Program-made: the position numbers and the translations under genes
Origin: Bacteroidia bacterium
GTDB lineage: Bacteria; Bacteroidota; Bacteroidia; B-17B0; Aurantibacillaceae
Length of the DNA: 64,000 bases
Assembly (NCBI GenBank): GCA_044344665.1
Contig: JBIJCO010000015.1
Coordinates: 812 to 64,811, forward strand
Direction: 5' to 3'
Notes under the pieces: generated by a model
Seen by the model: only the letters and a program-made list of their open reading frames with translations
Databases searched by the model: none
Told to the model about the DNA's origin: nothing
Shown here: in pieces, positions 5,043 through 46,345 of the stretch
Position numbering within the stretch: the stretch's first letter is position 1
Layout: each line of letters begins with the position of its first letter

Positions 5043-8000
5043 TTAACTTTTAGTTGACGTGCTTTTTCGTTTAAATTTATCTAAATACCGTTTAAATATT
5101 TCATTTATAGTTTCAAACTCCTCTCGGTAAAAAAAACCTACACCTTGAGTGTAAGGACCGCCAGATGTAGTTATTTGCGTATTGTCGTTGCTTCTGTTAA
5201 AACCTTTGACACGATATTTTCCATCATCAGTTAATTTATACTCAACATTAACATCGCCTATTAAACCGCTTGTATTATTTGCTTGATTATTGTTTACTCC
5301 AAAATTACCATCAATTGTTATTTTGTTGTTAAAAAATTGTTTGCTCAAAGCTAAATCAACTGCTTCTGTATTGTTTTGATTTCCGGGTCTATAATTTAAA
5401 CCAAGATTTAAATCTTGCATGCCTGTTAAGTTTCCAAAATAGGAATTTAAAAATTCGCTTACGCGATTGCTTAACATTTCGCTGCCGGTTGATGCTGCGG
5501 CGTTTCCAGCAGTTACACCGCCACTGTTTGAATTGTAAATTTGAGGCGTAACAAAACTTCTAAACAATAAAAAAGAAAATACCTGACGATTAAGTTCTAC
5601 TTCGTCGCTTAACACGTTGTTAATTCTCGCTTTAGCAGTTGCATCAATGTTAGGAAAAAGAATGTCGAAATTTATTGTCGGAGAAAATAATTTATTTTTT
5701 ATCAGCAATTTACATTCTACTGGAAATCTACCTTTGTATCTCCCTGTGGTATCATTTAATAATGGCGCAACAGAAGCTCTTTGTTTGTATGTAGTAGCTA
5801 TATCTATTTCAGCGTTTAAAGGATTGCCGCTCCATAAAATAGAACTGCCGGCATCTATGTCAAATTTTTTATTGATAACATTTTCAAGTGTAAATAAATA
5901 ATCTCCATTTTTTATTTTGTATTCACCAAACATTTCAAATTTACCAAGTGTGCTTATTTTTAAATTAATATCACCGTTTCCTTGAACATTTAATACATCG
6001 CCATTTGTTTTATCTAAAACAATTTGAACTTGCAAATCAGGTGTGGCGTTAATGTTCATATCTAAATCAAAACCGGAGTGCGTATTAATTGATTTTTTTA
6101 AAATGGTATCTTTTTTAACAAAATGTATAAAATCAGATTCGGTAATTTCTGCTGGCCCATCTAGAGGAAGGATAAATTTTGAGTTTTTGTTAGTAGTGGC
6201 ATTAACACTCATGTGTAAATTATTTAAAAAGCCATAAATACCTAAATTACCTGTAGCATAGGCTTTTCCGCAAAATGTATTGTTTTGTTTTTCGTTAGTA
6301 TTTAATACTAACATATTTTTAAAAGATATGTCATAATCTAATCTCATTTTATTGAAATTATCATGAAATATATTTCCGTTTATTGTTCCTTGAGGAGTTT
6401 TTTTATTACCTACTTCTTTAATAGACAAGTCGTCAAACCTTATTTGATCTGGCATTATTTCAATGTCGCCGATAATGTTGTAGGTAACATTTGTATAGTC
6501 TATTTTAATTTCGCTATTATAGAGTTTAAACTTGCCATCAATTTTAATATTGTTTGGTGTTCCGTGAATTTTCCCGTCACCTGAAATTAATGCGTTATTA
6601 ACAGTCATTATTCCTTCAAGTAAAGGATTAAGTAATTTAAGATTTGCGGGAGAGGCTTTTATATCTATATCAATGCTTTCGTCATCTTTATTTAAATAAT
6701 AATAACCTTTAAATGAAATATTTTTCATTTCCTCTCCATTTAAAGTTGGTAATCCTAAAGAGGTATAACCGTCGGTATAAATTGTTTTTGTGGAGGCAAC
6801 ATAATTTGTTTTTACAATTAATTTACCAATAGTATTATTATTTAATTTTAAATCTGAAAAGTTAAGATTGCTACTAAAGGCAAATGCTTTAGGGTCGTGT
6901 ATGGTTACCCTTCCGTTTAATTTACCTTCCAGTTTTATTTTTGCATCTTTTAAAAGGGGGTTAAATTGTTCTAACGTTAAGTTTGAAACGGTAATGGCTA
7001 AGCTGTCGTTAGCATTGCTGGTTAGTGCACCGGCAATACCAATGTTTTGTTCGTTGTTGGTAAATTGCAAAGGGTTAATGATAATGTTGCCTCCTGTATC
7101 TATTGTAGCTGGATTGGTTGTAACTAAATTCCAAATACTGCTGTCTTTAGACGAGATAAAAAATTTATCGAAAGTTAAATTGGCAATTTGCTTACTAAAC
7201 GAAACTTTTCCTGCCACTTTACCAGCGCTATTTGAAATTCCTTTGTTATTCCATTCAAAATTATATTTGGTGTCTAAATCTTTTGAAACTAAATACATGA
7301 AATAGTTTTTCAGATAAATACTATCGGTTAATTTAATATTGCTGCCTTTAAAAACTAGATTGATTTTATTGTTTTTAGAATAAGATTCAATTACATTATT
7401 GTTGAATTTAATGTCGCCGTATTTAATTGAATCTGATTTTAGATTTACAGTAATTAAATTAGTAAATGCATTAAATTCACCTCCAATAGTTGTATTGGGG
7501 CTAATCATTAGTTCTTTTATAAAAAGTTCATTAATCAAATTAAATTTTTTTATAGTTAATTTATAGTTAAATGCATCTTTGTAAATTAATCTACTTTTGT
7601 TTTTTATGAAAAATGTGGGATAGTAGGCATTTAACACCTGATTAAATGCTAGTGGCAGATTATTAATATTAAATTTGCCATCTGCGATAAAATTAAAATA
7701 ACTAGAATTTATAATTATTTTTTTGATTTCTGTTTCCTGATCTAGTTTTAAATCGATATTATTTATTTTGAATTTTTTTTCTGCAATTTTAAAACTAGTA
7801 TTGTCAAAATTAATGTAACCGCTAAGGTTATTAATATTGTCGCCATTCAACTTTATAAGAATTTGTGTAGATAATTTTGATTCAGATTTTGAGAAATTTA
7901 ATTTTTTTAAATCAAGGTTATTAATTATTGAAATAAAATCCATTTCTGGTAATTTATTGGTAAAGTTAATTGTACCATTAAAATCAAAATCAGCATTTTC

Positions 8001-10654: not shown

Positions 10655-12343
10655 ATGGAACAATTAATTGAATGTGTACCAAACTTTAGTGAGGGTGTTG
10701 ATTTAAATATTATTAAACAAATTACTGATGTTATTGAAAGTGTTGAGGGGGTTAAGTTATTGAATGTAGATCCTGGTAAGGCCACTAATCGCACAGTAGT
10801 TACATTTGTAGGAAATCCTAAATATGTTATTGATGCTGCGTTTCTTGCCATAAAAAAAGCAGGGGAGTTAATTGATATGAGCAAACATAAAGGTGAACAC
10901 CCACGAATGGGCGCTACAGATGTTTGCCCGTTAATTCCAATAAGTAATATAACCATGCAGGAAACCGCTGAATATGCAAAGCAATTGGGTAAACGAGTGG
11001 GCGAGGAATTGAAAATTCCGGTTTATTTGTATGAAGAAGCACAGCAAAATAAAAACCGCAGTAACCTTTCAGTTATCAGAAATGGAGAGTACGAAGGTTT
11101 TTTTAAAAAAATTAAATTACCTGAATGGAAACCTGATTTTGGTCCTGATGAATTTGATAAACATCGTGGAGGCACTGTAATTGGTGCTCGCGATTTTTTG
11201 GTTGCATATAATATTAACCTAAATACAACATCTACACGCAGGGCTAATTCTATTGCTTTTGATGTAAGAGAAGCAGGAAGGGTTGAAAGGGAAGGAAATT
11301 CATTAACCGGAAAAATTATTTTAAATGCCGATGGTTCTCCAAAATCAGTCCCTGGAACATTAAAATCGGTAAAGGCAATAGGTTGGTATATTGAAGAATA
11401 TGGCGTGTGTCAAATTTCAATGAATTTAACTAACATAAATATTACTCCTGTTCATATTGCGTTTGATGAAGTGTGTAAAAAAGCTACCGAGCGCGGGATA
11501 AGGGTTACCGGATCTGAGTTAGTTGGATTAATTCCATTAAAATCTTTGTTGGATGCCGGAGCTTATTTTTTGAAAAAACAAAACAGATCAACCGGAGTAA
11601 GTGAAAGCGAATTAATCAAGATTGCAGTTAAATCTATGGGTTTAGACGAATTATGTCCGTTTAAGCCGGAAGAAAGAATTATAGAATATTTATTAAAAGA
11701 AAAAGCCGATTCTAAATTAGTTAGCATGAATTTAGCTGCTTTTGCAGATGAAACCGCAAGCGAGAGTCCGGCACCAGGAGGAGGTTCTATTTCTGCCTAT
11801 GTTGGTAGTTTAGGAATTTCGTTAGCAACGATGGTGGCTAATTTAAGTTCTCATAAAAAAGGCTGGGATGATAGATGGGAAGAGTACAGTAATTGGGCAG
11901 AAAAAGGACAAAAAATTAAAAATGAATTGTTACGTTTGGTAGATGCCGATACTGCGGCATTTAATAAAATTATGACCGCGTTTTCTTTGCCAAAAGCTAC
12001 TGATGAAGAAAAGAAAAAAAGAACAGATGCTATACAAGAAGCCACAAAATTTGCTATTGAAGTGCCATTTAAAGTAATGCAATTAAGTTTTGAAAGTTTA
12101 GAAATAATAAAAGCAATGGCTGAAATTGGAAATCCTAATTCAGTCAGCGATGCCGGCGTAGGGGCTTTGTGTGCAAGAACAGCTGTTATGGGAGCTTTTA
12201 TGAATGTTAGAATTAATGCGAGTGGTTACAGCGACAAAAATTTTGTTAACGATATCATTGAAAAAGGTAAAGCTATGGAACAAAAAACCATAGCTGTTGA
12301 AGCTTCTATATTAAAAATTGTGGACGAAAAAATAGGGATTTAA
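10655..12343 (+). CDS. ftcD: Bifunctional glutamate formimidoyltransferase / formiminotetrahydrofolate cyclodeaminase
   Basis: N-terminal ECVPNFSEG and HPRMGATDVCP; C-terminal cyclodeaminase domain with ASESPAPGGGS and GNPNSVSDAGVG. Confidence 0.93.
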   Translation: MEQLIECVPNFSEGVDLNIIKQITDVIESVEGVKLLNVDPGKATNRTVVTFVGNPKYVIDAAFLAIKKAGELIDMSKHKGEHPRMGATDVCPLIPISNITMQETAEYAKQLGKRVGEELKIPVYLYEEAQQNKNRSNLSVIRNGEYEGFFKKIKLPEWKPDFGPDEFDKHRGGTVIGARDFLVAYNINLNTTSTRRANSIAFDVREAGRVEREGNSLTGKIILNADGSPKSVPGTLKSVKAIGWYIEEYGVCQISMNLTNINITPVHIAFDEVCKKATERGIRVTGSELVGLIPLKSLLDAGAYFLKKQNRSTGVSESELIKIAVKSMGLDELCPFKPEERIIEYLLKEKADSKLVSMNLAAFADETASESPAPGGGSISAYVGSLGISLATMVANLSSHKKGWDDRWEEYSNWAEKGQKIKNELLRLVDADTAAFNKIMTAFSLPKATDEEKKKRTDAIQEATKFAIEVPFKVMQLSFESLEIIKAMAEIGNPNSVSDAGVGALCARTAVMGAFMNVRINASGYSDKNFVNDIIEKGKAMEQKTIAVEASILKIVDEKIGI

Positions 12344-37920: not shown

Positions 37921-37935
37921 CTACTTTCCGATACA
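37921..37935. repeat. att site, left copy (displaced duplicate of the mnmE 3' end)
   Basis: CTACTTTCCGATACA; minus strand reads TGT ATC GGA AAG TAG = C-I-G-K-stop. 13/15 identical to the right copy. Confidence 0.85.
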
Positions 37936-37996
37936 TAAAGTAACTAATTGACTTAAACATTTTATTTACAATGCTTTAAAAAAACAAAACACTTTT

Positions 37997-38018
37997 AAGG
38001 TACAAATAAGGTACAAAT
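37997..38018 (+). repeat. Tandem arm-type integrase-binding repeats, left end
   Basis: AAGGTACAAAT x2, 11-bp period, ~60 bp inside the left att core. Confidence 0.7.
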
Positions 38019-38076
38019 AAGAGTAAAAGTATTTTATTAAATGAGTTTTATCAATTTATTATTTATCAAAAATTAT

Positions 38077-38100: not shown

Positions 38101-38556
38101 ATGAAAAATAAATTATCGTTACTATTAATATTATTTGGCTTTTTATTTTTTTCAACAAATTCTATTAATGCACAAACAATAACTGAAAAACCCATTTATA
38201 AAGGAATTAATGGGCTTACAATTAGGGAATTAAAAAGTGGAGGTATCTATTTTAGCTACCAAAATCCTGAATATACAACAATAGTAGATATTGTTTCTTT
38301 TAATACTAGTTCGAAATTAAACGCTATTCAGCTTTTTGAAAAAGCAATAACCATTTTAGGAATGGAAAAAACAGATAAAGAACAACATATTATTGATAAT
38401 TTTGAAGGTGTTGAATTGGCTCGGTATGGGTTTTCACAAAAGCAAATTTCTTTATCAAATGGTAAAAATCGAGGTATTTATTTGACGTTAAAAGATTGTA
38501 ATAAAATAAAAGACGCTTTATCAGAATATCAATATATTCACCAATCTGATAATTAA
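38101..38556 (+). CDS. Hypothetical exported protein (element cargo)
   Basis: MKNKLSLLLILFGFLFFSTNSINAQ signal peptide; no family recognised; only element gene on the plus strand. Confidence 0.75.
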   Translation: MKNKLSLLLILFGFLFFSTNSINAQTITEKPIYKGINGLTIRELKSGGIYFSYQNPEYTTIVDIVSFNTSSKLNAIQLFEKAITILGMEKTDKEQHIIDNFEGVELARYGFSQKQISLSNGKNRGIYLTLKDCNKIKDALSEYQYIHQSDN

Positions 38557-38624: not shown

Positions 38625-39320
38625 TCAAAATTTAAACTTATCAATTTCTAAAACTTCTGGCTGTGGTAAGGCTGTTTTTAAAATAGTTTCAATAGTATTC
38701 AGTTGTTCGGGGTTGAGGCGTTTTATTGTTTCCTGACTTAATACAGTCCCGTTTATTTGAATGTAGTTATTTTGGTTTTGTATCAAAGTATTTTTAGGGG
38801 CTTGCCCGTTATTCATAAAACCCATTACATTGAAATAAAGTTTGGCTGCTCCCGTGTCCCCATTTACGGCAAACTGAAATACCTTTGCCAAAACTTTAGA
38901 GGTCATAAACCTGAACTGTTCTATTTGTCCCAAATATTGAGGGGTGCTCGCATATTCCTTGAGGTGTTTATGTACTGTTTGTCGGCTCAACTCTGTTTTA
39001 TTAGCTATTTCCGTTTTGGTTGGCATACGTCCGTATTCCTTCATTAAAGTTGAAATTGCCCACGTTATTTGAATATGGTTACTTTCCCAAAGTTGGTTTT
39101 TAGTGGTGTCGCTTGTAATCGGTTCAATTTTTTTATAAAACTTATCCCTTTCTGTTCCTTTCAGCTTATTAAATCTTTCTGTAAGTATTTCCATTAAACG
39201 AGTGCTTTCTAATTCGCTTAATGGTTCTAGGTCGCTGGGTGTAATTTGTTCAAGTGAAAGTACTTTATTTATTTTAGTTTCGGTTTCTGTAAACTTTTGT
39301 AAACTCTTTTTGGTTATCAT
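38625..39320 (-). CDS. HTH protein, candidate small terminase subunit (TerS-like)
   Basis: HTH (PTKTEIANKTELSRQTVHKHL), then helical KVLAKVFQFAVNGDTGAAKLYF and a QNQNNYIQING tail, resembling phage small-terminase architecture. Starts 1 nt after the primase stop. CDS is secure; function is inferred. Confidence 0.5.
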   Translation of the reverse strand: MITKKSLQKFTETETKINKVLSLEQITPSDLEPLSELESTRLMEILTERFNKLKGTERDKFYKKIEPITSDTTKNQLWESNHIQITWAISTLMKEYGRMPTKTEIANKTELSRQTVHKHLKEYASTPQYLGQIEQFRFMTSKVLAKVFQFAVNGDTGAAKLYFNVMGFMNNGQAPKNTLIQNQNNYIQINGTVLSQETIKRLNPEQLNTIETILKTALPQPEVLEIDKFKF

Positions 39321-39321
39321 A

Positions 39322-40590
39322 TTAATTCAAATTTGTGGTTAATACTTGTTTCAATTTCTGTAATCGGTTGAGGTATGGTAAAAAGGTTCGTTTACCGTTG
39401 TTCGCTTTCAAGGTGGCAAGGTGGTTTTCAATGAATATGGAACAGTTAAATATTATTTCGGCTTGTTTGAGTTTCACGGGCTGGTTTGGTAATGTAATAC
39501 CTGTAAAATAGTTTTCAAGTTCGGTAATATCCTTTTCCCAGCTTTCAAGTTTTGGTTTTTCGGGTTTACTGAAATAGTAAACAGGTTCGGGTTGCTCAAA
39601 TGGTTTCACCTCAACCAATGGTCTAGCGTCTGGGGGTGTTTCGGTGGTTTCAGGTAGTGCAAACGCTTTGTAATCGTATTTTATTAAATAGTCGGCAAGG
39701 TCAAACCCTTGTTTCTTTTCGGCTTCGGTGGCTTTACGTTCCAGTAAATCGGAAACGGTAAAATTTGCAAGGTGTGAAAGTTCCTTTGCCTTGCTGTTCC
39801 ATTTATCAAACCCGTTGAGGTCGGGAAATAGCGTAATAGTTCGCCCTTTAAGTATACTGCACTTTTCAGCGTTTAGGTTAGTAAGACTGCCAACGGCAAC
39901 CCAAATAAACTGTGGTAAATAAACGCTGGCAATCACAGCCGTTTTTTCGCTTTCAACTATTGCAACGGGTTTTGTTTTATTAATTAGTAAGTGTTCACCA
40001 AACAAACATTGCCTTAACTCAAATTCAGGCTGTTTAATAGCTTTATGAACCCAGTTAATGTAATTGTATGGTTCTTTAACTCTTTTACCTGTGACGGGAC
40101 TGTAAAGCATTATTTTACCCGTTCTAACTTTACCCTGTGTATCTATTTGCCAAAATACCGTTGCCCCGTTCCAATACTTTGAGGCGGCAATAAAATAACG
40201 GCTTACTAGTTGGCTGGCAACCTCAACCTTGAATAGGTTAATAAGGAACTGTACAAAGCAGTTCGTTTCGTGTGCTTTCAGGCTGGCTTTAAATACCTCA
40301 ACGGGAATAAAAGAAACAGGCTTTGGTTGAGGTTTAACAGGTAGGGGCTTATAAGCTTTAGGTTGGGGTATATCAAATGAAATATTGTTATCCTGAAAAT
40401 ATTGTTTAGGGGTGTAATGGTTTCCACAATTACTTTCACGGTTGCACCTGCCAACGGTTGGGTGTATATGTTCGCCTGTTTCTTTATCAATGTAAAGTGA
40501 AAAGGTTTTATCCCTTTGCTGGCAAATGGGGCAACGGTAACGGGTATTTATTCCCTTGTATGGTTCTAATATGTATCTGTGTTCATTCAT
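39322..40590 (-). CDS. Toprim-type primase-like protein (DUF6371-like) with N-terminal zinc ribbon
   Basis: YRCPIC...GRCNRESNCG zinc-binding region; VFWQID...GKIMLY; LFGEHL; Toprim-like AIVESEKTA, LFPD, DLAD. Confidence 0.8.
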   Translation of the reverse strand: MNEHRYILEPYKGINTRYRCPICQQRDKTFSLYIDKETGEHIHPTVGRCNRESNCGNHYTPKQYFQDNNISFDIPQPKAYKPLPVKPQPKPVSFIPVEVFKASLKAHETNCFVQFLINLFKVEVASQLVSRYFIAASKYWNGATVFWQIDTQGKVRTGKIMLYSPVTGKRVKEPYNYINWVHKAIKQPEFELRQCLFGEHLLINKTKPVAIVESEKTAVIASVYLPQFIWVAVGSLTNLNAEKCSILKGRTITLFPDLNGFDKWNSKAKELSHLANFTVSDLLERKATEAEKKQGFDLADYLIKYDYKAFALPETTETPPDARPLVEVKPFEQPEPVYYFSKPEKPKLESWEKDITELENYFTGITLPNQPVKLKQAEIIFNCSIFIENHLATLKANNGKRTFLPYLNRLQKLKQVLTTNLN

Positions 40591-40603: not shown

Positions 40604-40658
40604 GTGTAACAGGTGTAACGTTTGTAACAGGGTGTTACAAGTGTTACAGGTGTTACAA
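40604..40658. repeat. Palindromic iteron-like array (putative replication origin)
   Basis: Six 9-bp units: GTGTAACAG, GTGTAACGT, TTGTAACAG, (G), GTGTTACAA, GTGTTACAG, GTGTTACAA. The halves form a 25-bp inverted repeat (21/25 match) around GGG and fill most of the helicase-primase gap. Confidence 0.8.
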
Positions 40659-41783
40659 TTTGTTTTGTTTATCTAAAATTCGTTTCGCTTGTTGGTGAGA
40701 AATACCCAGTTCAACCCCTATTTCTCGAAGGCTTCGCCCTTGCTGTTTTAGTTCGCTTACCTTTTCGTTTAGGTTTTCTTTATCCTTTTCGGTGTGCTGT
40801 TTCAGGTGTTCCCATTCCTTACCGAAATTCACAAACTCAAACATTAAGAAATTAAGAGGCTTATCAATTTGACAAACACAAACATTTTCAGCATCGTAAA
40901 TTTGTTCGGTGTTCCGTTGCTTAATTTGTTTCAGGTAGCGTAAATTTTTGTCGCTGTGGCTTTCACCTATTGAAAAGGAACTATCACAAAAGTTTATTAG
41001 CATCTTACTGCCTTGTAAATCATTTCGGGTAATTGGTTTTGATAAGTCCCTTTTTGGTGTGTGTGCAAGTGCCAAAATAGAAAGCCCGTATTTGTTTTTT
41101 AATGCTTTCAAATGTTTCATTAAAGGCAAAGCATCTTTAGCCTTTTCAGTTTCATTTTTGAGGTAAGTAAGGTTATCAATGATTAAAACTTTTGCCCCTG
41201 TTTCGGTAATGCTTCGTTCCAATGAATGGTTGAGGTAATCCTCAAAGGTTTGGGCTTCAGGTATGTTGGCATCGGGGTTTATTTCAACCCGAATAAAGTT
41301 GTTATCAAAGTTGTAATGCTGTTCAAACTTTATTGAATATCGGTTTTCAAATTGTTTGTCGCTTAACTCAAAATCAAAATACAAAATCGGTTGCTTTGGT
41401 GTTTCCAATTTAAAGCCCCGTATCTGTTCGCCCTTGCTTATACTGTTACCAATTTGCACGGCTAAAATTGACTTACCTAAATTGGTGTCGGCAAACAAAA
41501 TACATAGTTCACCCTCAAACCAAAATTCACCAAAAAGCATTTGCGGAATAGGTCGGGTTTTCGCCTGTTCAATCCAACGGCTGGCTGTTTTTACTGTGAA
41601 CAGTCCTTTACTTTCTTTGGCTTCATTGCCTTGCTTTAAAAGTTGTTCAGCTTCGGTTTTAATATCCTCAACTCCGATATTGTATTTATCCAATTCAAAC
41701 ACAGGGGTAATGGTGTTTAAATTTGTATCTTTGTTCCCGTCTTTAGTGCTTAACTTATTAGGGGTGTTGTTATGTTCCTGCAT
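40653..41783 (-). CDS. AAA_25/RecA-fold ATPase (putative replicative helicase) with C-terminal HTH
   Basis: Walker A variant FADTNLGKS, Walker B LIIDN, LAHTPK, DLQGSK, YLKQIKQRN; C-terminal GRSLREIGVELGISHQQAKRIL. Confidence 0.85.
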   Translation of the reverse strand: MQEHNNTPNKLSTKDGNKDTNLNTITPVFELDKYNIGVEDIKTEAEQLLKQGNEAKESKGLFTVKTASRWIEQAKTRPIPQMLFGEFWFEGELCILFADTNLGKSILAVQIGNSISKGEQIRGFKLETPKQPILYFDFELSDKQFENRYSIKFEQHYNFDNNFIRVEINPDANIPEAQTFEDYLNHSLERSITETGAKVLIIDNLTYLKNETEKAKDALPLMKHLKALKNKYGLSILALAHTPKRDLSKPITRNDLQGSKMLINFCDSSFSIGESHSDKNLRYLKQIKQRNTEQIYDAENVCVCQIDKPLNFLMFEFVNFGKEWEHLKQHTEKDKENLNEKVSELKQQGRSLREIGVELGISHQQAKRILDKQNKL

Positions 41784-41786
41784 AGC

Positions 41787-42113
41787 TTACCCCTTTTTAG
41801 TTTTACAATATTGTTCGGCTTCGCTGTCTGTTTCTGCCAACGTCCTTTTTCTGCCTTGCTTCAAATAATTGATTAACTCAACTTTTGAAAAGTAACAACG
41901 CTTTGAACGCTTCATTACTGGCAATTCGCCTTTACTTATTAAAGTGTAAACGGTGGGAACTGAAAGGCTCAAAAATTTAGCCGTGTCCTGAACTGTTAAA
42001 AGTTCGTCTGTTTCGAGTTGTTCGCCCTGCTCTTTAGATGTGTGTTTGAGGTCGAGCAATAAGGTTTCAATATTGTTTAACCTTGCCTCAATTAATTCAA
42101 ATGGATTATTCAT
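41787..42113 (-). CDS. Excisionase-like helix-turn-helix (HTH_17) protein
   Basis: ELLTVQDTAKFLSLSVPTVYTLISKGELP...RCYFSKVELINYL. ORF track starts at 42140 (TTG); the ATG at 42113 (MNNPFE) is more likely. Confidence 0.88.
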   Translation of the reverse strand: MNNPFELIEARLNNIETLLLDLKHTSKEQGEQLETDELLTVQDTAKFLSLSVPTVYTLISKGELPVMKRSKRCYFSKVELINYLKQGRKRTLAETDSEAEQYCKTKKG

Positions 42114-42163
42114 TTTGTACAAGTTTTTAATTACTTGCACAAATATTGGTTGGCTTAAAAGTG

Positions 42164-42191: not shown

Positions 42192-42965
42192 TTATTGATA
42201 TTCATTTTCAAATAAGGTTTTCAATATTCTTATTTCATCAATAGCCCTTTGTTTGTTGTTATCTGACAAATGACTAATAACGCTTTCAAACAGTTTAATT
42301 TTATTCTTTAGCTTTTTAGGTGTACAATGTGTCGGCTTTCCTTTCCTGTTTGCTGTACTGGAATAGTATGAATAATCCTGAAACAATCCCTCACCTGAAT
42401 TTTTAGACGTGTACCCGTGTTTAGCTGCAATTTCCTTAGCGTTTCCCCTTGTTATTTGTAAACCTTCGTAAAAGTGAATAAGTGCAATTTGAGAAACTTT
42501 AAGTTTATCCGTTTTCGTTTCAGATTGTTGAGTTGTTAAGGCTTCGGGGTTGGTATTGTAGTATAAATAATCAATAGGTTGTTTATTAAATATTTCAATC
42601 CATTCAATTAATGTTTTTTCAAGCGTTGCTCTTAGTTCTGCTTTATAGTTTTGTGGGTTTAAATTTATACTTTCAAAAGTAGCTTTTAACCAATCTAAAG
42701 GGTTTCCGCCTGACTGCCTGTAATTATCAAATAATTCCCGTAAATATGAAACAACAGTTTCGTGGGTAAAATAATTATTTTTTAATTCTGTTTGTAAACT
42801 TGCTAAATCAAAATAATAAAGCTGCTCAATATGAATATCAGTTAATTCAAAATCGGGGTAATTATCAAACATTTCATTTACAGTTATTGGTTTTCCTTCA
42901 ATTCCTGTTTGATATTCAAAATTAAAAAGTAGCCCGTAAAAAGGTATATATTCTGAAACTTTCAT
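42192..42965 (-). CDS. Hypothetical protein between integrase and excisionase
   Basis: 257-aa ORF co-oriented with element genes; no family recognised. Confidence 0.75.
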   Translation of the reverse strand: MKVSEYIPFYGLLFNFEYQTGIEGKPITVNEMFDNYPDFELTDIHIEQLYYFDLASLQTELKNNYFTHETVVSYLRELFDNYRQSGGNPLDWLKATFESINLNPQNYKAELRATLEKTLIEWIEIFNKQPIDYLYYNTNPEALTTQQSETKTDKLKVSQIALIHFYEGLQITRGNAKEIAAKHGYTSKNSGEGLFQDYSYYSSTANRKGKPTHCTPKKLKNKIKLFESVISHLSDNNKQRAIDEIRILKTLFENEYQ

Positions 42966-42986: not shown

Positions 42987-44129
42987 TTAAAAATCTAATT
43001 GTATTTTGTTGGCTGCTTCACGTTTGGTTTGGTCTATAATCTTTGCGTAAATCTGTGTGGTTTTTAGTTCACGGTGCCCCAGCATTTTAGAAACAGTATA
43101 AATATCCGTTCCCTTTGATAGTTGCAAGGTTGCGAAAGTGTGGCGGAAACAATGAAAGGTTATATCCTTTTCAATACCTGCAAGCCCTATCCATTTAGCA
43201 AGATGTTTATTTTCGTATGCTGAATAAGTAAGCCCCTCAAATACTTTGTCGCTGGGTTCTTTACGTTCACCCAATAAGCTAAAAGCTTGTTCAGAAATTG
43301 GCATCATTTCAACCCCTTTTGTTTTTTGTTGTTTAAACTGGATAAAATACCCGTTGCCTTCAATGTATTCCAATTCGCCCCAAACAAGATTTTTAATATC
43401 TGAAAACCTCAACCCTGTGAGGGCTGAAAATAGGGCTGCACGTTTCAATAAAGGGTTGTTACATTCAGTTTTTACAAGGCTGTTAAGTTCCTCAATAGTT
43501 AAAAAGTTTCTTTGTGTTTCTGCCTGTTTAATTGGTTGTATTTTACCATTCAGGTCGTTGGGTAAATACCCGTCTTTATAGGCTTGTTTTAAAGTTGCTT
43601 TCAGTTTATTGAAATAGGAAACGGCTGAATTTTGGGCAAGGGTTACTTTATTGCTCTTATTGCTTTTGGTAGTGAGTAAATACTCTTTGAACTCATTACA
43701 AAACTTTTCGTTGAGGTCGGCAAACTTTAAATTTCCATTTGTGAATGTTTCTAGGTAATTGTGTGCTGAAACCCAGTTATCGTGGTTACTTGCTTTACGT
43801 TTGTCAGCAAGGCTTTTAAAGTAGGTAACAAAATTTTGTTCGCCTAGCTCTTTAATCTTTAATTGTTCCTTTTCGTACCCTGTGTAAATTTCAGGTTTGT
43901 TTAAATGGTTTTCACGTTTCTGCCTTATTTGTTCAGCAAGTTGCAAAGTTTCTTTATTGCCTTGCTTATCAATAGGGTTCTTTGCCTTGTTAAAAAGGTA
44001 CAACCCTAAAAATTCCCTTCGGGTTGGTTCACCAGTTTTGGGGTGTGGAATAGGTGGGTAAAAATCTAAATACAAGCTTTGCCTGTTACCTGAAATTTCC
44101 TTTTGTCTTAACTTAACTTTTATTGCCAT
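42987..44129 (-). CDS. int: Tyrosine recombinase/site-specific integrase (Bacteroidota type with N-terminal arm-binding domain)
   Basis: N-terminal SLYLDFYPP...RREFLGLYL; catalytic R (LTGLRFSDI), HCFRH, LGH and TTQIY all intact. Confidence 0.96.
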   Translation of the reverse strand: MAIKVKLRQKEISGNRQSLYLDFYPPIPHPKTGEPTRREFLGLYLFNKAKNPIDKQGNKETLQLAEQIRQKRENHLNKPEIYTGYEKEQLKIKELGEQNFVTYFKSLADKRKASNHDNWVSAHNYLETFTNGNLKFADLNEKFCNEFKEYLLTTKSNKSNKVTLAQNSAVSYFNKLKATLKQAYKDGYLPNDLNGKIQPIKQAETQRNFLTIEELNSLVKTECNNPLLKRAALFSALTGLRFSDIKNLVWGELEYIEGNGYFIQFKQQKTKGVEMMPISEQAFSLLGERKEPSDKVFEGLTYSAYENKHLAKWIGLAGIEKDITFHCFRHTFATLQLSKGTDIYTVSKMLGHRELKTTQIYAKIIDQTKREAANKIQLDF

Positions 44130-44149: not shown

Positions 44150-44713
44150 TTAACTAAATAGTTTATCTATAAACGTTTTAGGAACGTATGCAAACCAGCC
44201 TTTTTTTATTTTAGGTATGCTGTTTCGTTTTATAAGGTTTTGTAAGGTTGTTTCTGAAATACCGTATTTGCTTTTTACTTCTGTAAAGTTGTAACAGTCT
44301 GCAATATCAAACTGCTTTTGTTCAGGTTGCTTTTCGGGTTGAGGTGTTCGGTTGGTTGGCTCTATAAATAGTTTGTCAAGGTCTGAACGCTTTACAATAG
44401 TTTTCTTTAATAAAATGTTTGTCGCTTTCAGCTTACCCGTATTGATAAGGTTGTAAACATTTTGTCGGGAACAGCCTATTAATTTTGAAACCTGTGTAAC
44501 GCTTAAAAATTCCTTTGCTTTTAGTTCCTCAATAGGTTGTTTTTTTATACGCTGTGTTTCTTTATTGCTTTGCTCAACCTTACCAGCCCTTAATCTTGCC
44601 TTGTAAGCCTTTTTACTGCAAGTATCACTACAATACTGGGTTACTGTGGTTCTTGCTGTGAACTCATTACCACAATGCTGGCAAATACGTTGTATCTTAA
44701 TATTTGAACTCAT
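44150..44713 (-). CDS. Zinc-finger + tandem excisionase-like HTH protein
   Basis: CQHCG...YCSDTC; first [24 protein letters not shown]; second [24 protein letters not shown]. Confidence 0.85.
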
Positions 44714-44775: not shown

Positions 44776-44827
44776 GAGGTACAAATTTGCCTTTCAACCC
44801 ATAGTAAGGTACAATAAAGGTACAAAT
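44776..44827 (+). repeat. Arm-type integrase-binding repeats, right end
   Basis: GAGGTACAAAT (44776), AAGGTACAATA (44806), AAGGTACAAAT (44817); same motif, orientation and 11-bp tandem period as the left-end pair. Confidence 0.7.
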
Positions 44828-44880
44828 ATTCAATAAAAAAACAACTATTAAAACAAAATAAACCTATCAGTTAAGGTATT

Positions 44881-44950: not shown

Positions 44951-44965
44951 TTATTTTCCGATACA
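44951..44965. repeat. att site, right copy (within mnmE last codons)
   Basis: TTATTTTCCGATACA; minus strand TGT ATC GGA AAA TAA = C-I-G-K-stop. Confidence 0.85.
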
Positions 44966-46345
44966 AAACTTAGAAAAAATATTACTTAGTAGGTCATCGG
45001 TGGTAACTTCACCGGTAATAAGCCCAATTTCTTCAAGGGCGTAGCGTATATCTAAGGCTAGTATATCGGTAACAATGTTTTGGTTTAATCCTTCTAACAC
45101 TTTGTTGAGTGCCGCATTTACATTTTTTAGCGAGTTGGCATGCCTTGCATTAGTTACAATAGTATCGGTTGCAGTTATCGAAGTTGAGTCGTATAAGCCA
45201 AGCAGTTTTTGTTTTAGCTCACTAATTTGCAAGTGTGTTTTTGCTGAAATAAACAGTATATCTTTAAAATCAGAAAACTCAGTTGTTAACTCAGAGCTAT
45301 TTTTTGAATCAATTTTATTGCCAACTAAAAGCAGTTGCGAGGTGCCAATATGTTCTTTTAATAATTCAATTTCATTTTTTAAATCGCCACTGCTTAGCTC
45401 GTTTACATCAAATAAATAAATAATAACTGCCGATTTTTTAATGGCTTCAAAGGCTTTATTTACACCAATTTGTTCAATAACATCGTTAGTGGTTCGTATG
45501 CCGGCAGTATCTATAAATCTAAACAATACGCCATCAATTGTAATTTCATCTTCAATGGTATCTCTGGTAGTACCGGCAATTTCACTAACGATTGCGCGCT
45601 CATCGTTTAATAGGGTATTAAGTAGCGTTGATTTTCCTGCATTTGGTTTTCCAATAATTGCAACCGGAATGCCATTTTTTATTACGTTACCTAATTCAAA
45701 GCTGCTAAGCAGATTTAAAACAATGGTATTAATTGAATGAACTAAATTTTTAAGTTCGTTTCTGTTTGCAAATTCAACATCTTCCTCACTAAAATCCAAT
45801 TCTAGTTCAATTAATGAAGCAAAATTAATTAGCTTTTCACGCAGTAGTTTTATTTTGTTACTGAAACCTCCCCGCATTTGTTTCATGGCTATTTCATGCG
45901 ATAGAGCAGAATTACTAGCAATTAAATCAGCAACGGCTTCGGCCTGACTTAAATCGAACTTGCCATTTAAAAAAGCGCGTAAGGTAAACTCTCCAGGTTC
46001 TGCCAGGCGTGCCCCCGAATTTAAAAACAACTGTAATAATTGTTGGATGATGTATGGAGAACCATGACACGATACCTCTGCGCAATCTTGTCCGGTAAAC
46101 GAATTTGGATTTTTAAAAATGCTTACTAAAACTTCGTCAATAATAATTTCTTTATTAATAATTAAACCAAAATGTAGGGTATGCGTTAAGCTATTTTTAA
46201 GTTTCTTTTTTTGAAGTGATTTTGAATAAAAATAAGTTTCAATTATTGTAAAGGCTTCAGGGCCGCTCAAACGAATAACTGCAATTGCCGAACTTCCATG
46301 CGCCGTTGCTAATGCAACAATGGTATCGTTGGTTTCAAATTTCAT
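44951..46345 (-). CDS. mnmE: tRNA uridine-5-carboxymethylaminomethyl(34) synthesis GTPase MnmE (TrmE)
   Basis: DTIVALAT, EPGEFTLRAFLNGK, GKPNAGKST, GTTRD, DTAG, NKID, terminal FSKFCIGK. Confidence 0.98.
   Translation of the reverse strand: MKFETNDTIVALATAHGSSAIAVIRLSGPEAFTIIETYFYSKSLQKKKLKNSLTHTLHFGLIINKEIIIDEVLVSIFKNPNSFTGQDCAEVSCHGSPYIIQQLLQLFLNSGARLAEPGEFTLRAFLNGKFDLSQAEAVADLIASNSALSHEIAMKQMRGGFSNKIKLLREKLINFASLIELELDFSEEDVEFANRNELKNLVHSINTIVLNLLSSFELGNVIKNGIPVAIIGKPNAGKSTLLNTLLNDERAIVSEIAGTTRDTIEDEITIDGVLFRFIDTAGIRTTNDVIEQIGVNKAFEAIKKSAVIIYLFDVNELSSGDLKNEIELLKEHIGTSQLLLVGNKIDSKNSSELTTEFSDFKDILFISAKTHLQISELKQKLLGLYDSTSITATDTIVTNARHANSLKNVNAALNKVLEGLNQNIVTDILALDIRYALEEIGLITGEVTTDDLLSNIFSKFCIGK

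Follow-up and report, generated by a model that had tools for sequence, protein, structure and literature searches.

Opposed iterons at the end of a RecA-type ATPase gene form a candidate replication origin in an integrated element of Bacteroidota

Results

The 64,000-nucleotide stretch of the Bacteroidia bacterium contig JBIJCO010000015.1 analysed here (hereafter the window, with positions counted from its first letter) carries an integrated element of ~7.03 kb at the 3' end of mnmE. Inside the element, between a gene for a putative helicase-type ATPase and a gene for a putative primase, lies a 53-bp array of six short repeats (iterons) arranged as two opposed sets of three (3+3). Comparison with relatives revealed that the position of the array, the number of its units and their spacing are conserved, that its sequence co-varies with a helix-turn-helix (HTH) domain at the C-terminus of the ATPase, and that related elements carrying the array occur as circles. 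These patterns argue strongly that the ATPase HTH recognises the array as its cognate site, and, by analogy with characterised satellite origins, we lean towards the view that it serves as the replication origin of the excised element.

Geometry of the array

Read on the plus strand, positions 40605-40657 consist of TGTAACA (40605-40611), TGTAACG (40614-40620) and TGTAACA (40623-40629), separated by gg and tt, followed by a central ggg and three TGTTACA units (40633-40639, 40642-40648 and 40651-40657) separated by ag and gg. The first arm (40605-40629) adjoins the primase-like start, and its sequence on the minus (coding) strand is three (T/C)GTTACA units; the second (40633-40657) reads on that strand as three TGTAACA units, the outermost of which contains the ATPase stop codon (TAA, 40655-40653). 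The centre of symmetry (40630-40632) is GGG on the plus strand and CCC on the coding strand. Start-to-start distances are 9 bp inside each arm and 10 bp over the centre. Direct reading therefore bears out the original prediction, made from the letters of the window, which had described three TGTAAC(A) units facing three TGTTACA units at 9-bp spacing around GGG, with the helicase stop in the outermost unit, between a helicase-like gene encoding a C-terminal HTH and a primase-like gene. Its 25-bp inverted repeat with 21 of 25 positions matching was likewise recovered by a repeat search, as two 25-nt arms, 84% complementary (21/25) and 3 nt apart; the 21 paired positions correspond approximately to the three 7-nt cores, and the spacers pair at only 1 of 4 positions. 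The primase-like ATG (40590-40588) adjoins the array as predicted, at 14 nt past the last core base; the 13 nt given earlier holds when counted from 40604, the limit that had then been set for the array.

Exact TGTAACA/TGTTACA heptamers occur 16 times in the window, and five of these fall inside the 53-bp array, where ~0.013 would be expected at the window-wide density. The two-unit pattern TGTAACANNTGTAACA, allowing up to 2 mismatches, gave 7 matches against 1.3 expected, 6 of them inside the array, and none of 100 shuffles reached 7. A chance origin of the array was rejected on the repeat density and the shuffle test. Searches with exact matches and with the two-unit pattern found no further TGTAACA pair anywhere in the 7-kb element, for example at a promoter.

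Conservation among relatives

Relatives of the ATPase fall into more than 7,000 clusters in a protein collection, where hundreds are more than 90% identical to it and many lie on contigs of 5-8 kb. A scan of GTDB species representatives yielded 80 loci with 60-95% ATPase identity from many Bacteroidota lineages, including isolates of Flavobacterium, Agriterribacter, Emticicia, Pontibacter, Chryseobacterium, Salegentibacter and Spirosoma; together with the circle of Tn4555 these made up a set of 81 loci. An inverted array follows the ATPase stop in nearly all of them and begins at most 25 nt from it in 73 of the 81. The 3+3 layout is present at 43 loci, and the remainder have 2-5 units per arm, with unequal arms such as 3+4 or 4+3 being frequent and centres measuring 0-3 nt. 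Spacing between neighbours is exactly 9 bp in 258 of 315 unit pairs, 10 bp in 43 and 8 bp in 9, independent of the core sequence. The cores themselves fall into seven classes: TGTAACA (38 loci, the window included), GTTCAC (19), TCGTAC (11), A/GGTAAC (8), GCGTAC (3), GTTTCAC (1) and GTCCCA, the class of Tn4555.

The primase-like start lies at most 40 nt from the array in 58 of 72 loci and 41-289 nt from it in the other 14; a further 9 loci yielded no primase start beyond the array, which still sits at the ATPase stop. Of its two neighbours, it is the ATPase gene to which the array is the more tightly tied. In a search of PLSDB, the window ATPase was 43% identical to the "AAA family ATPase" of Tn4555-type cfxA elements, which have the gene string excisionase, AAA ATPase, DUF6371 protein and mobilization protein. 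On one such circle (L081, CP103138.1), an array of three GTCCCA facing three TGGGAC units occupies positions 1006-1070, inside the annotated ATPase open reading frame (ORF), which reads ~30 codons through the array because the GTCCCA core holds no stop codon.

Some loci show other arrangements. At L060 (~2400-2560), three palindromic GCGTAC clusters (1+1, 3+2 and 1+1) lie between the ATPase and primase genes, and at L065 (~7200) the ATPase stop and the array, whose class still matches the HTH, are set apart by an insertion of ~170 nt. A 38.5-kb viral contig (L092, ~10945-11130) encodes an ATPase 49% identical to that of the window; the HTH of this protein is GTTCAC-like (SVGSVNRML), and the ATPase stop is followed by dispersed CGAGTA/TACTCG motifs in place of a 9-bp array. 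In a second mobilizable element (L099, NZ_OY725959.1, 9383-9546) a distant AAA ATPase/toprim pair, in which the ATPase is without a C-terminal HTH, has in its intergenic region GGGTGTATATA twice and the inverted pair GTTTAGTCCG/CGGACTAAAC in place of a 3+3 array.

Co-variation of the iterons with the ATPase HTH

Each repeat class goes with its own recognition helix in the ATPase HTH. Cores of the TGTAACA class accompany SHMKVSRIL (SHQQAKRIL in the window and in L084), A/GGTAAC accompanies FKVKVSRIV, GTTCAC accompanies SLGAVNKYL, T/GCGTAC accompanies SEGAIRKWI, GTTTCAC accompanies SYSKAHRLL, and the GTCCCA core of Tn4555 accompanies KSTVNRII. In a neighbour-joining tree built from the ATPase core, repeat class switches ~23 times, where the minimum possible is 6 and random labelling gives 39, and 29 pairs of loci have ATPase cores more than 90% identical yet different repeat classes. 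Judged from these sequences, the co-variation is not a by-product of phylogeny.

The extent of the exchanged segment was apparent when pairs of the same and of different repeat class were compared in the top bin of 90-100% ATPase-core identity. Identity over HTH residues 345-372 was 0.91 for same-class and 0.34 for different-class pairs, whereas the upstream flank (ATPase residues 285-330) gave 0.94 and 0.88 and the downstream flank (primase residues 1-70) 0.76 and 0.81; bins of lower core identity had the same pattern. Individual pairs illustrate this: L027 and L001 are 94% identical in the core, 91% in the upstream flank, 32% in the HTH and 84% in the primase N-terminus, and for L029 and L010 the corresponding values are 91, 87, 54 and 90%. 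The sharp drop in the HTH with unchanged flanks therefore indicates that HTH and array move together as one discrete cassette of ~150-200 bp, bounded by a breakpoint at either end, and that this has happened several independent times. Such exchange is the expectation if HTH and array must match to work. Co-variation of iterons and HTH in related elements had been named in the original prediction as a check, and it came out strongly positive.

At L043 (~7050-7230, after the ATPase stop) two tandem arrays are present, CGTAAC/GTTAC (3+4) and, ~40 nt further, TCGTAC/GTACGA (3+4). The proximal array matches the HTH of the locus and the distal one belongs to another class, probably a scar of specificity-cassette exchange.

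The ATPase and the primase-like protein

The ATPase (376 aa, 40653-41783, minus strand) is a putative helicase-initiator of the RecA type, DnaB/T7 gp4-like by Pfam, PHROG and PDB profile searches. It has a Walker A motif (ADTNLGKS) and a Walker B motif (LIIDN), and both are invariant among its relatives, where GKS (103-105) and the D203 block are retained. Pfam placed it in AAA_25 (E 2.7e-19) with a weak DnaB_C match, and PHROG matched it to DnaB-like helicase and primase/helicase families (E ~1e-14). These matches and the PDB profile assign it to neither the AAA+ superfamily 3 (SF3) nor the MCM type. A single-sequence search against PDB gave no significant relative, and a profile of 14 relatives gave a weak match to T7 gp4 (E 0.08).

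Its C-terminal HTH (40656-40772, minus strand; approximately residues 338-376) contains the recognition helix SHQQAKRIL. This domain is the sole confident part of an AlphaFold2 (AF2) model, with a predicted local distance difference test score (pLDDT) of 79-90 for residues 340-376 and helices at 352-359 and 363-375. It matched Pfam HTH_28 weakly and PHROG 686 "HTH DNA binding" with E 5e-4, and the PDB search with the profile of the ATPase retrieved HTHs of the GerE/NarL/resolvase type. The window and L084 share a minority variant of the ATPase tail (ending in SHQQAKRILDKQNKL before the stop), in which one unit overlaps the coding sequence and every spacing is 9 bp. In the common variant (ending in SHMKVSRILKDCNTL; L001-L026 comparison) two units encode the last residues (GAC TGT AAC ACC CTG TAA) and the first spacing is 10 bp.

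The adjoining gene (39322-40590, minus strand) encodes a 422-aa protein with a Zn-ribbon, DUF6371 and DUF6965, a putative primase with a Toprim-like domain. Pfam matches were to Zn_ribbon_16 (E 2.5e-25), to DUF6371 (E 3.5e-64) and also to DUF6965. The residues C20, C23, C49, C55, H58, E213, E215, D257, D297 and D300 are invariant, forming the pattern CxxC, C, C..H, ExE, PD and DxxD of a zinc ribbon followed by a Toprim acidic triad. These residues fit a Toprim-type primase, and priming activity is predicted. By homology the protein groups with the "primase family" proteins that mobilizable transposons of Bacteroides encode, and its counterpart in Tn4555 is annotated "DUF6371"; a sequence search against PDB returned no solved relative. 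We consider "helicase" and "primase" reasonable, putative labels for the two proteins. Inside the primase-like gene, 39348-39385 on the plus strand gave a sub-threshold Rfam match to CRISPR-DR2 (25 bits, E 0.29), most likely by chance.

The integrated element

The element is bounded by 17-bp attachment (att) cores found in a direct-repeat search, TACTTTCCGATACATAA on the left (37922-37938) and TATTTTCCGATACAAAA on the right (44952-44968), the latter comprising the last codons of mnmE (ending CIGK and stop), an end that the element restores. A terminator-like hairpin for mnmE lies at 44905-44885 (minus strand), inside the element. Arm-type repeats unlike the iterons, presumably integrase arm sites, occur near the left end (AAGGTACAAAT, 37996-38030) and the right end (AAGGTACAA(T/A)A, 44805-44828); the array as integrase arm sites was rejected, as the separate repeats AAGGTACAAAT sit at both element ends.

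Nearly all genes of the element are on the minus strand. They encode an excisionase-like Zn-finger protein with a double HTH_17 (187 aa, 44150-44713), a tyrosine integrase with Arm-DNA-bind_5, SAM_5 and catalytic domains by Pfam (42987-44129), a 257-aa protein with no family match (42192-42965), and, upstream of the ATPase in the gene string, a 117-aa excisionase-family HTH_17 protein (41787-42140). Downstream of the primase-like gene, on the same strand, is a gene for a 231-aa HTH protein (38625-39320) with no relaxase signature, whose weak matches were to sigma-70 region 3, to the small terminase family phrog_24579 (E 8.5e-4) and to Csa3 (E 5.7e-5); the Csa3 match was the only one from PADLOC, and we did not accept it as evidence of a defence system. 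An ORF on the plus strand (38101-38556) encodes a 151-aa protein, probably cargo, that matches no family and has a hydrophobic, signal-like stretch at its N-terminus.

No relaxase or Mob match was found with Pfam and NCBIfam on all main ORFs of the element or with PHROG on six ORFs, and a close relative, L093, is likewise without a relaxase. From the gene string common to Tn4555 and MTnBf8 we therefore assign the element, on sequence grounds, to the NBU1/Tn4555 backbone family, minus its Mob/oriT part. Although no relaxase or Mob match was found, ATPases more than 90% identical occur over several Bacteroidota orders and habitats, and a satellite-like lifestyle is conceivable.

Circular relatives

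A scan of IMG/VR returned 11 relatives, 8 of them as whole contigs of 5.9-9.7 kb. Terminal direct overlaps of 96-127 bp, the usual signature of circular assembly, were present in five of the eight (L082, L083, L084, L089 and L091), and in L082, L084 and L085 the 17-bp core links the sequences corresponding to positions 37922 and 44968 of the window, which is the attP junction predicted from the window. The array is present in all of these IMG/VR contigs. Tn4555-type circles of 10-15.7 kb have been deposited as plasmids, and the PLSDB gene tables, which are incomplete, annotate no replication gene on them beyond the ATPase/Toprim-type module. Terminal overlaps were not found among 13 whole GTDB contigs. 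Circular (or tandem) forms thus occur often enough to turn up in assemblies. The contigs L082-L091 (6-10 kb) are filed as viral genomes; they have no virion-like gene and look like excised integrative elements that were misclassified.

Discussion

A model for initiation

If the array is a vegetative origin of the 7-kb circle, its six iterons would dock the RecA-type ATPase, one 7-bp TGTAACA core per HTH. Following excision at the mnmE att core, ATPase protomers would dock through their tethered HTHs on the opposed triplets, and this would nucleate ring assembly to both sides of the centre, in opposite orientations. The AT-rich flanks could then melt, and the Zn-ribbon/Toprim-like protein encoded directly downstream would prime synthesis. 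Because the array lies within the transcription unit, protein bound to it may, secondarily, also lower the read-through that reaches the primase gene. More speculatively, the 9-bp step corresponds to approximately -51 degrees around B-DNA, near the 60-degree step between subunits of a hexamer. Physical binding, the helicase and primase activities, and initiation at the array are the parts of this model that we infer.

Comparison with known systems

The original prediction had likened the array to the inverted iteron origins of elements resembling Staphylococcus aureus pathogenicity islands (SaPIs), and the analogy holds in part. SaPI Reps recognise, through a C-terminal domain, 6-12 penta- or hexanucleotide iterons directly downstream of rep; the origins have at least two iterons on each side in opposite directions, and no separate loader is used (PMC9371898). 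The window element resembles these islands in being integrated by a tyrosine integrase, in its predicted ring-ATPase initiator, its adjacent primase gene and its element-specific specificity (PMC9371898), as well as in having at least six short (5-7 bp) iterons right after the initiator ORF, in two opposed sets, with a C-terminal DNA-binding domain to recognise them. Where the analogy fails is in the motor and in the centre of the origin: SaPI Reps are AAA+ SF3 or MCM-like helicases and their origin centres are AT-rich, whereas the window ATPase is a RecA-type AAA_25 protein and the centre of its array is 3 nt of G/C. The SaPI reader is a winged helix, in contrast to the simple HTH found here; the SaPI gene order is pri-rep-ori, compared with rep-ori-pri within one operon; and the strict 9-bp spacing and the host phylum, Bacteroidota, also set the window element apart.

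Among mobile elements of its own phylum, the closest likeness is to NBU1, NBU2 and Tn4555, which share the integrase, the excisionase-like HTH_17 protein, the AAA ATPase, the DUF6371/Toprim "primase family" module and excision to a circle; Tn4555 also ends its ATPase gene with a corresponding 3+3 array (GTCCCA/TGGGAC). The window element differs from them in having neither a relaxase/mob gene nor resistance cargo, and its ATPase shares only 43% identity with the Tn4555 protein. The papers searched on NBU1/Tn4555-type elements tie the ATPase and primase proteins to excision and describe the elements as non-replicating; our literature searches found no description of the array or of the function of DUF6371, and an older mention in the primary NBU1/Tn4555 papers is possible.

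More distant parallels concern the principle. Ziegelin and colleagues reportedly showed in 1993 that the alpha protein of satellite phage P4 is a primase-helicase whose C-terminal domain binds direct and inverted octamer repeats at the satellite origin. The alpha protein is a fused primase/SF3-helicase/DNA-binding polypeptide that needs two separated cis regions (ori and crr), whereas the window element has a pair of proteins, a single compact array and a motor of the RecA type. In simian virus 40 (SV40) and other polyomaviruses, whose initiator is large T antigen, and in papillomaviruses, whose initiator is E1, inverted penta- and hexanucleotide sites nucleate two opposed helicase hexamers, and flanking AT-rich DNA melts; those helicases are of the SF3 type, come from eukaryotic viruses, carry a dedicated origin-binding domain and have no sequence relation to the window ATPase, and the number and spacing of their sites are different. 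Iteron plasmids of the Rep_3/RepA type also repeat initiator sites beside the rep gene, and their specificity defines compatibility, but their iterons are 17-22-bp direct repeats about one helical turn apart, bound by a non-motor winged-helix initiator that recruits host DnaB, in contrast to the 7-bp cores, 9-bp period and inverted triplets of the window array, which the motor itself would read. The principle of iterons read by a helicase-initiator beside its gene is thus known; the protein family, the compact 3+3 geometry with its 9-bp period, the position within an operon, the seven HTH/iteron specificities and the host element family would be new.

Evidence that weighs against an origin

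Several observations weigh against reading the array as an HTH-bound origin. The window array has no AT-rich centre, only 3 nt of GGG/CCC, and its location within an operon, 14 nt before the next start codon, is unusual for an origin. The AF2 model of the ATPase is poor (mean pLDDT 42.5, from input homologues that were all at least 87% identical), and because the fold could not be modelled (pLDDT 42) the label "helicase" rests on profile matches. As the HTH adjoins the array in the DNA, their co-inheritance is partly expected, and it is the breakpoints on both sides that argue against linkage alone. Circular contigs could stem from tandem copies. In Logan contigs (contigs, not reads) from four lake metagenomes, depth over the element equalled that of its flanks, extra depth came solely from related elements, and no circle joint was seen; in two runs of an isolate with the relative L047, again as contigs rather than reads, the element lay in one 59-kb contig with no circle joint. 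Being contigs, these data are uninformative about replication and do not count as a negative. The classical relatives were named for the opposite property, NBU standing for non-replicating Bacteroides unit, as in the recent description of MTnBf8, where an HTH_17/ATPase/primase-type module lies beside a mobN1 homologue. Shoemaker and colleagues are said to have found in 2000 that deletions of orf3 and prmN1 abolished excision of NBU1.

Alternative explanations

The place of the array inside the transcription unit, so close to the primase-like start here and at most other loci, would also suit an operator or roadblock with which the HTH sets the ATPase:primase ratio or autoregulates the operon, with no part in initiation. 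The resemblance of the HTH to GerE/NarL-type regulators is consistent with this, as is the name "LuxR family transcriptional regulator" given by NCBI to some ATPase homologues. A promoter, however, does not fit between the array and the start codon, and the upstream promoter regions contain no iteron. The array also keeps its place at the ATPase stop at the 14 loci with a distant primase start and the 9 at which none was found, and in Tn4555 it lies inside the ATPase ORF; six sites in opposed triplets with a fixed 9-bp period, recognised by a domain fused to a DnaB/gp4-like motor, exceed what an operator needs. Regulation as the sole function is in our estimation improbable, and a dual role, as origin and in expression control, is possible. 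We regard it as similarly unlikely that the array is an accessory site for excision or integration, at which the ATPase/primase pair promotes or couples excision instead of replication. The NBU1/Tn4555-type backbone of integrase, HTH_17 protein, AAA ATPase and Toprim-type protein speaks for this idea; in addition, excision of NBU1 needs a large region beyond int and the recombination directionality factor gene, and Tn4555 needs an extra protein (reviews, PMC5704250). Against it, the array is ~2.7 kb from the left att core and ~4.3 kb from the right and is unlike the arm-type repeats, a motor ATPase with a Toprim protein is replication machinery, and the apparent requirement could reflect a need to replicate the circle before it can be detected.

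The symmetry of the array raises the question of whether the nucleic acid itself is the functional structure, as an mRNA hairpin involved in processing, stability or attenuation, or as the DNA cruciform that the original prediction had proposed. Stable folds are indeed predicted: the coding-strand RNA forms an interrupted hairpin of 21 pairs at -20.9 kcal/mol (z = -3.9), and the single-stranded DNA folds at -15.5 kcal/mol (z = -5.4). Across the 37 loci with cleanly centred arrays, however, complementarity between the arms is 96% at core positions and only 37% at spacer positions, a value that 7-nt cores inflate slightly, with the choice of phase slightly favouring the cores. Because the spacers are not complementary between arms, the sites appear to have been selected rather than the hairpin, and conservation would apply to a group of oriented sites for protein binding and not to a stem. 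A stem would not need three identical units per arm, and the arms are often unequal. An intrinsic terminator was rejected, there being no U-run 3' of the hairpin and no terminator call at the window array, and a known RNA family was rejected for want of an Rfam match to the array. A cruciform is possible and seems not to be selected for, and we consider a structural role as a whole very unlikely. Still less probable is an origin of transfer (oriT) or another nicking site for mobilisation. Inverted repeats are common in oriTs and the relatives Tn4555 and NBU1 are mobilizable, but the window element lacks a relaxase match, the Tn4555 mobilization gene is 1.4 kb downstream of the array with its own upstream intergenic region of 283 bp, and the array co-varies with the ATPase HTH and not with a Mob protein.

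Implications for Bacteroidota mobile elements

Extending the origin interpretation to the family, it is possible, although we put it somewhat short of an even chance, that NBU1/Tn4555-type elements and their relaxase-less relatives of 6-10 kb, ubiquitous among environmental Bacteroidota, are autonomous replicons once excised, through unrecognised RecA-type self-loading helicase-initiators that read a 3+3 origin with their HTH. Swapping of cassettes between backbones would then create specificity, or incompatibility, groups, the excision requirement would reflect replication of the circle, and spread of the relaxase-less members as phage satellites would be a possibility.

An origin at the array would give a very abundant family of mobile elements in Bacteroidota, including the cfxA carrier Tn4555, a defined and testable replication module. 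The label "non-replicating" would have to be revised, and the need for the primase and the ATPase in NBU1 excision might be explained. A RecA-type motor would also join the self-loading helicase-initiators, which have so far been of the SF3 or MCM type (SaPIs, P4 and eukaryotic DNA viruses). As they occur in nature, the seven HTH/iteron pairs offer what may be a ready-made specificity code for studies of protein-DNA recognition and element incompatibility, and they could serve as the basis of orthogonal small replicons for genetically difficult Bacteroidota.

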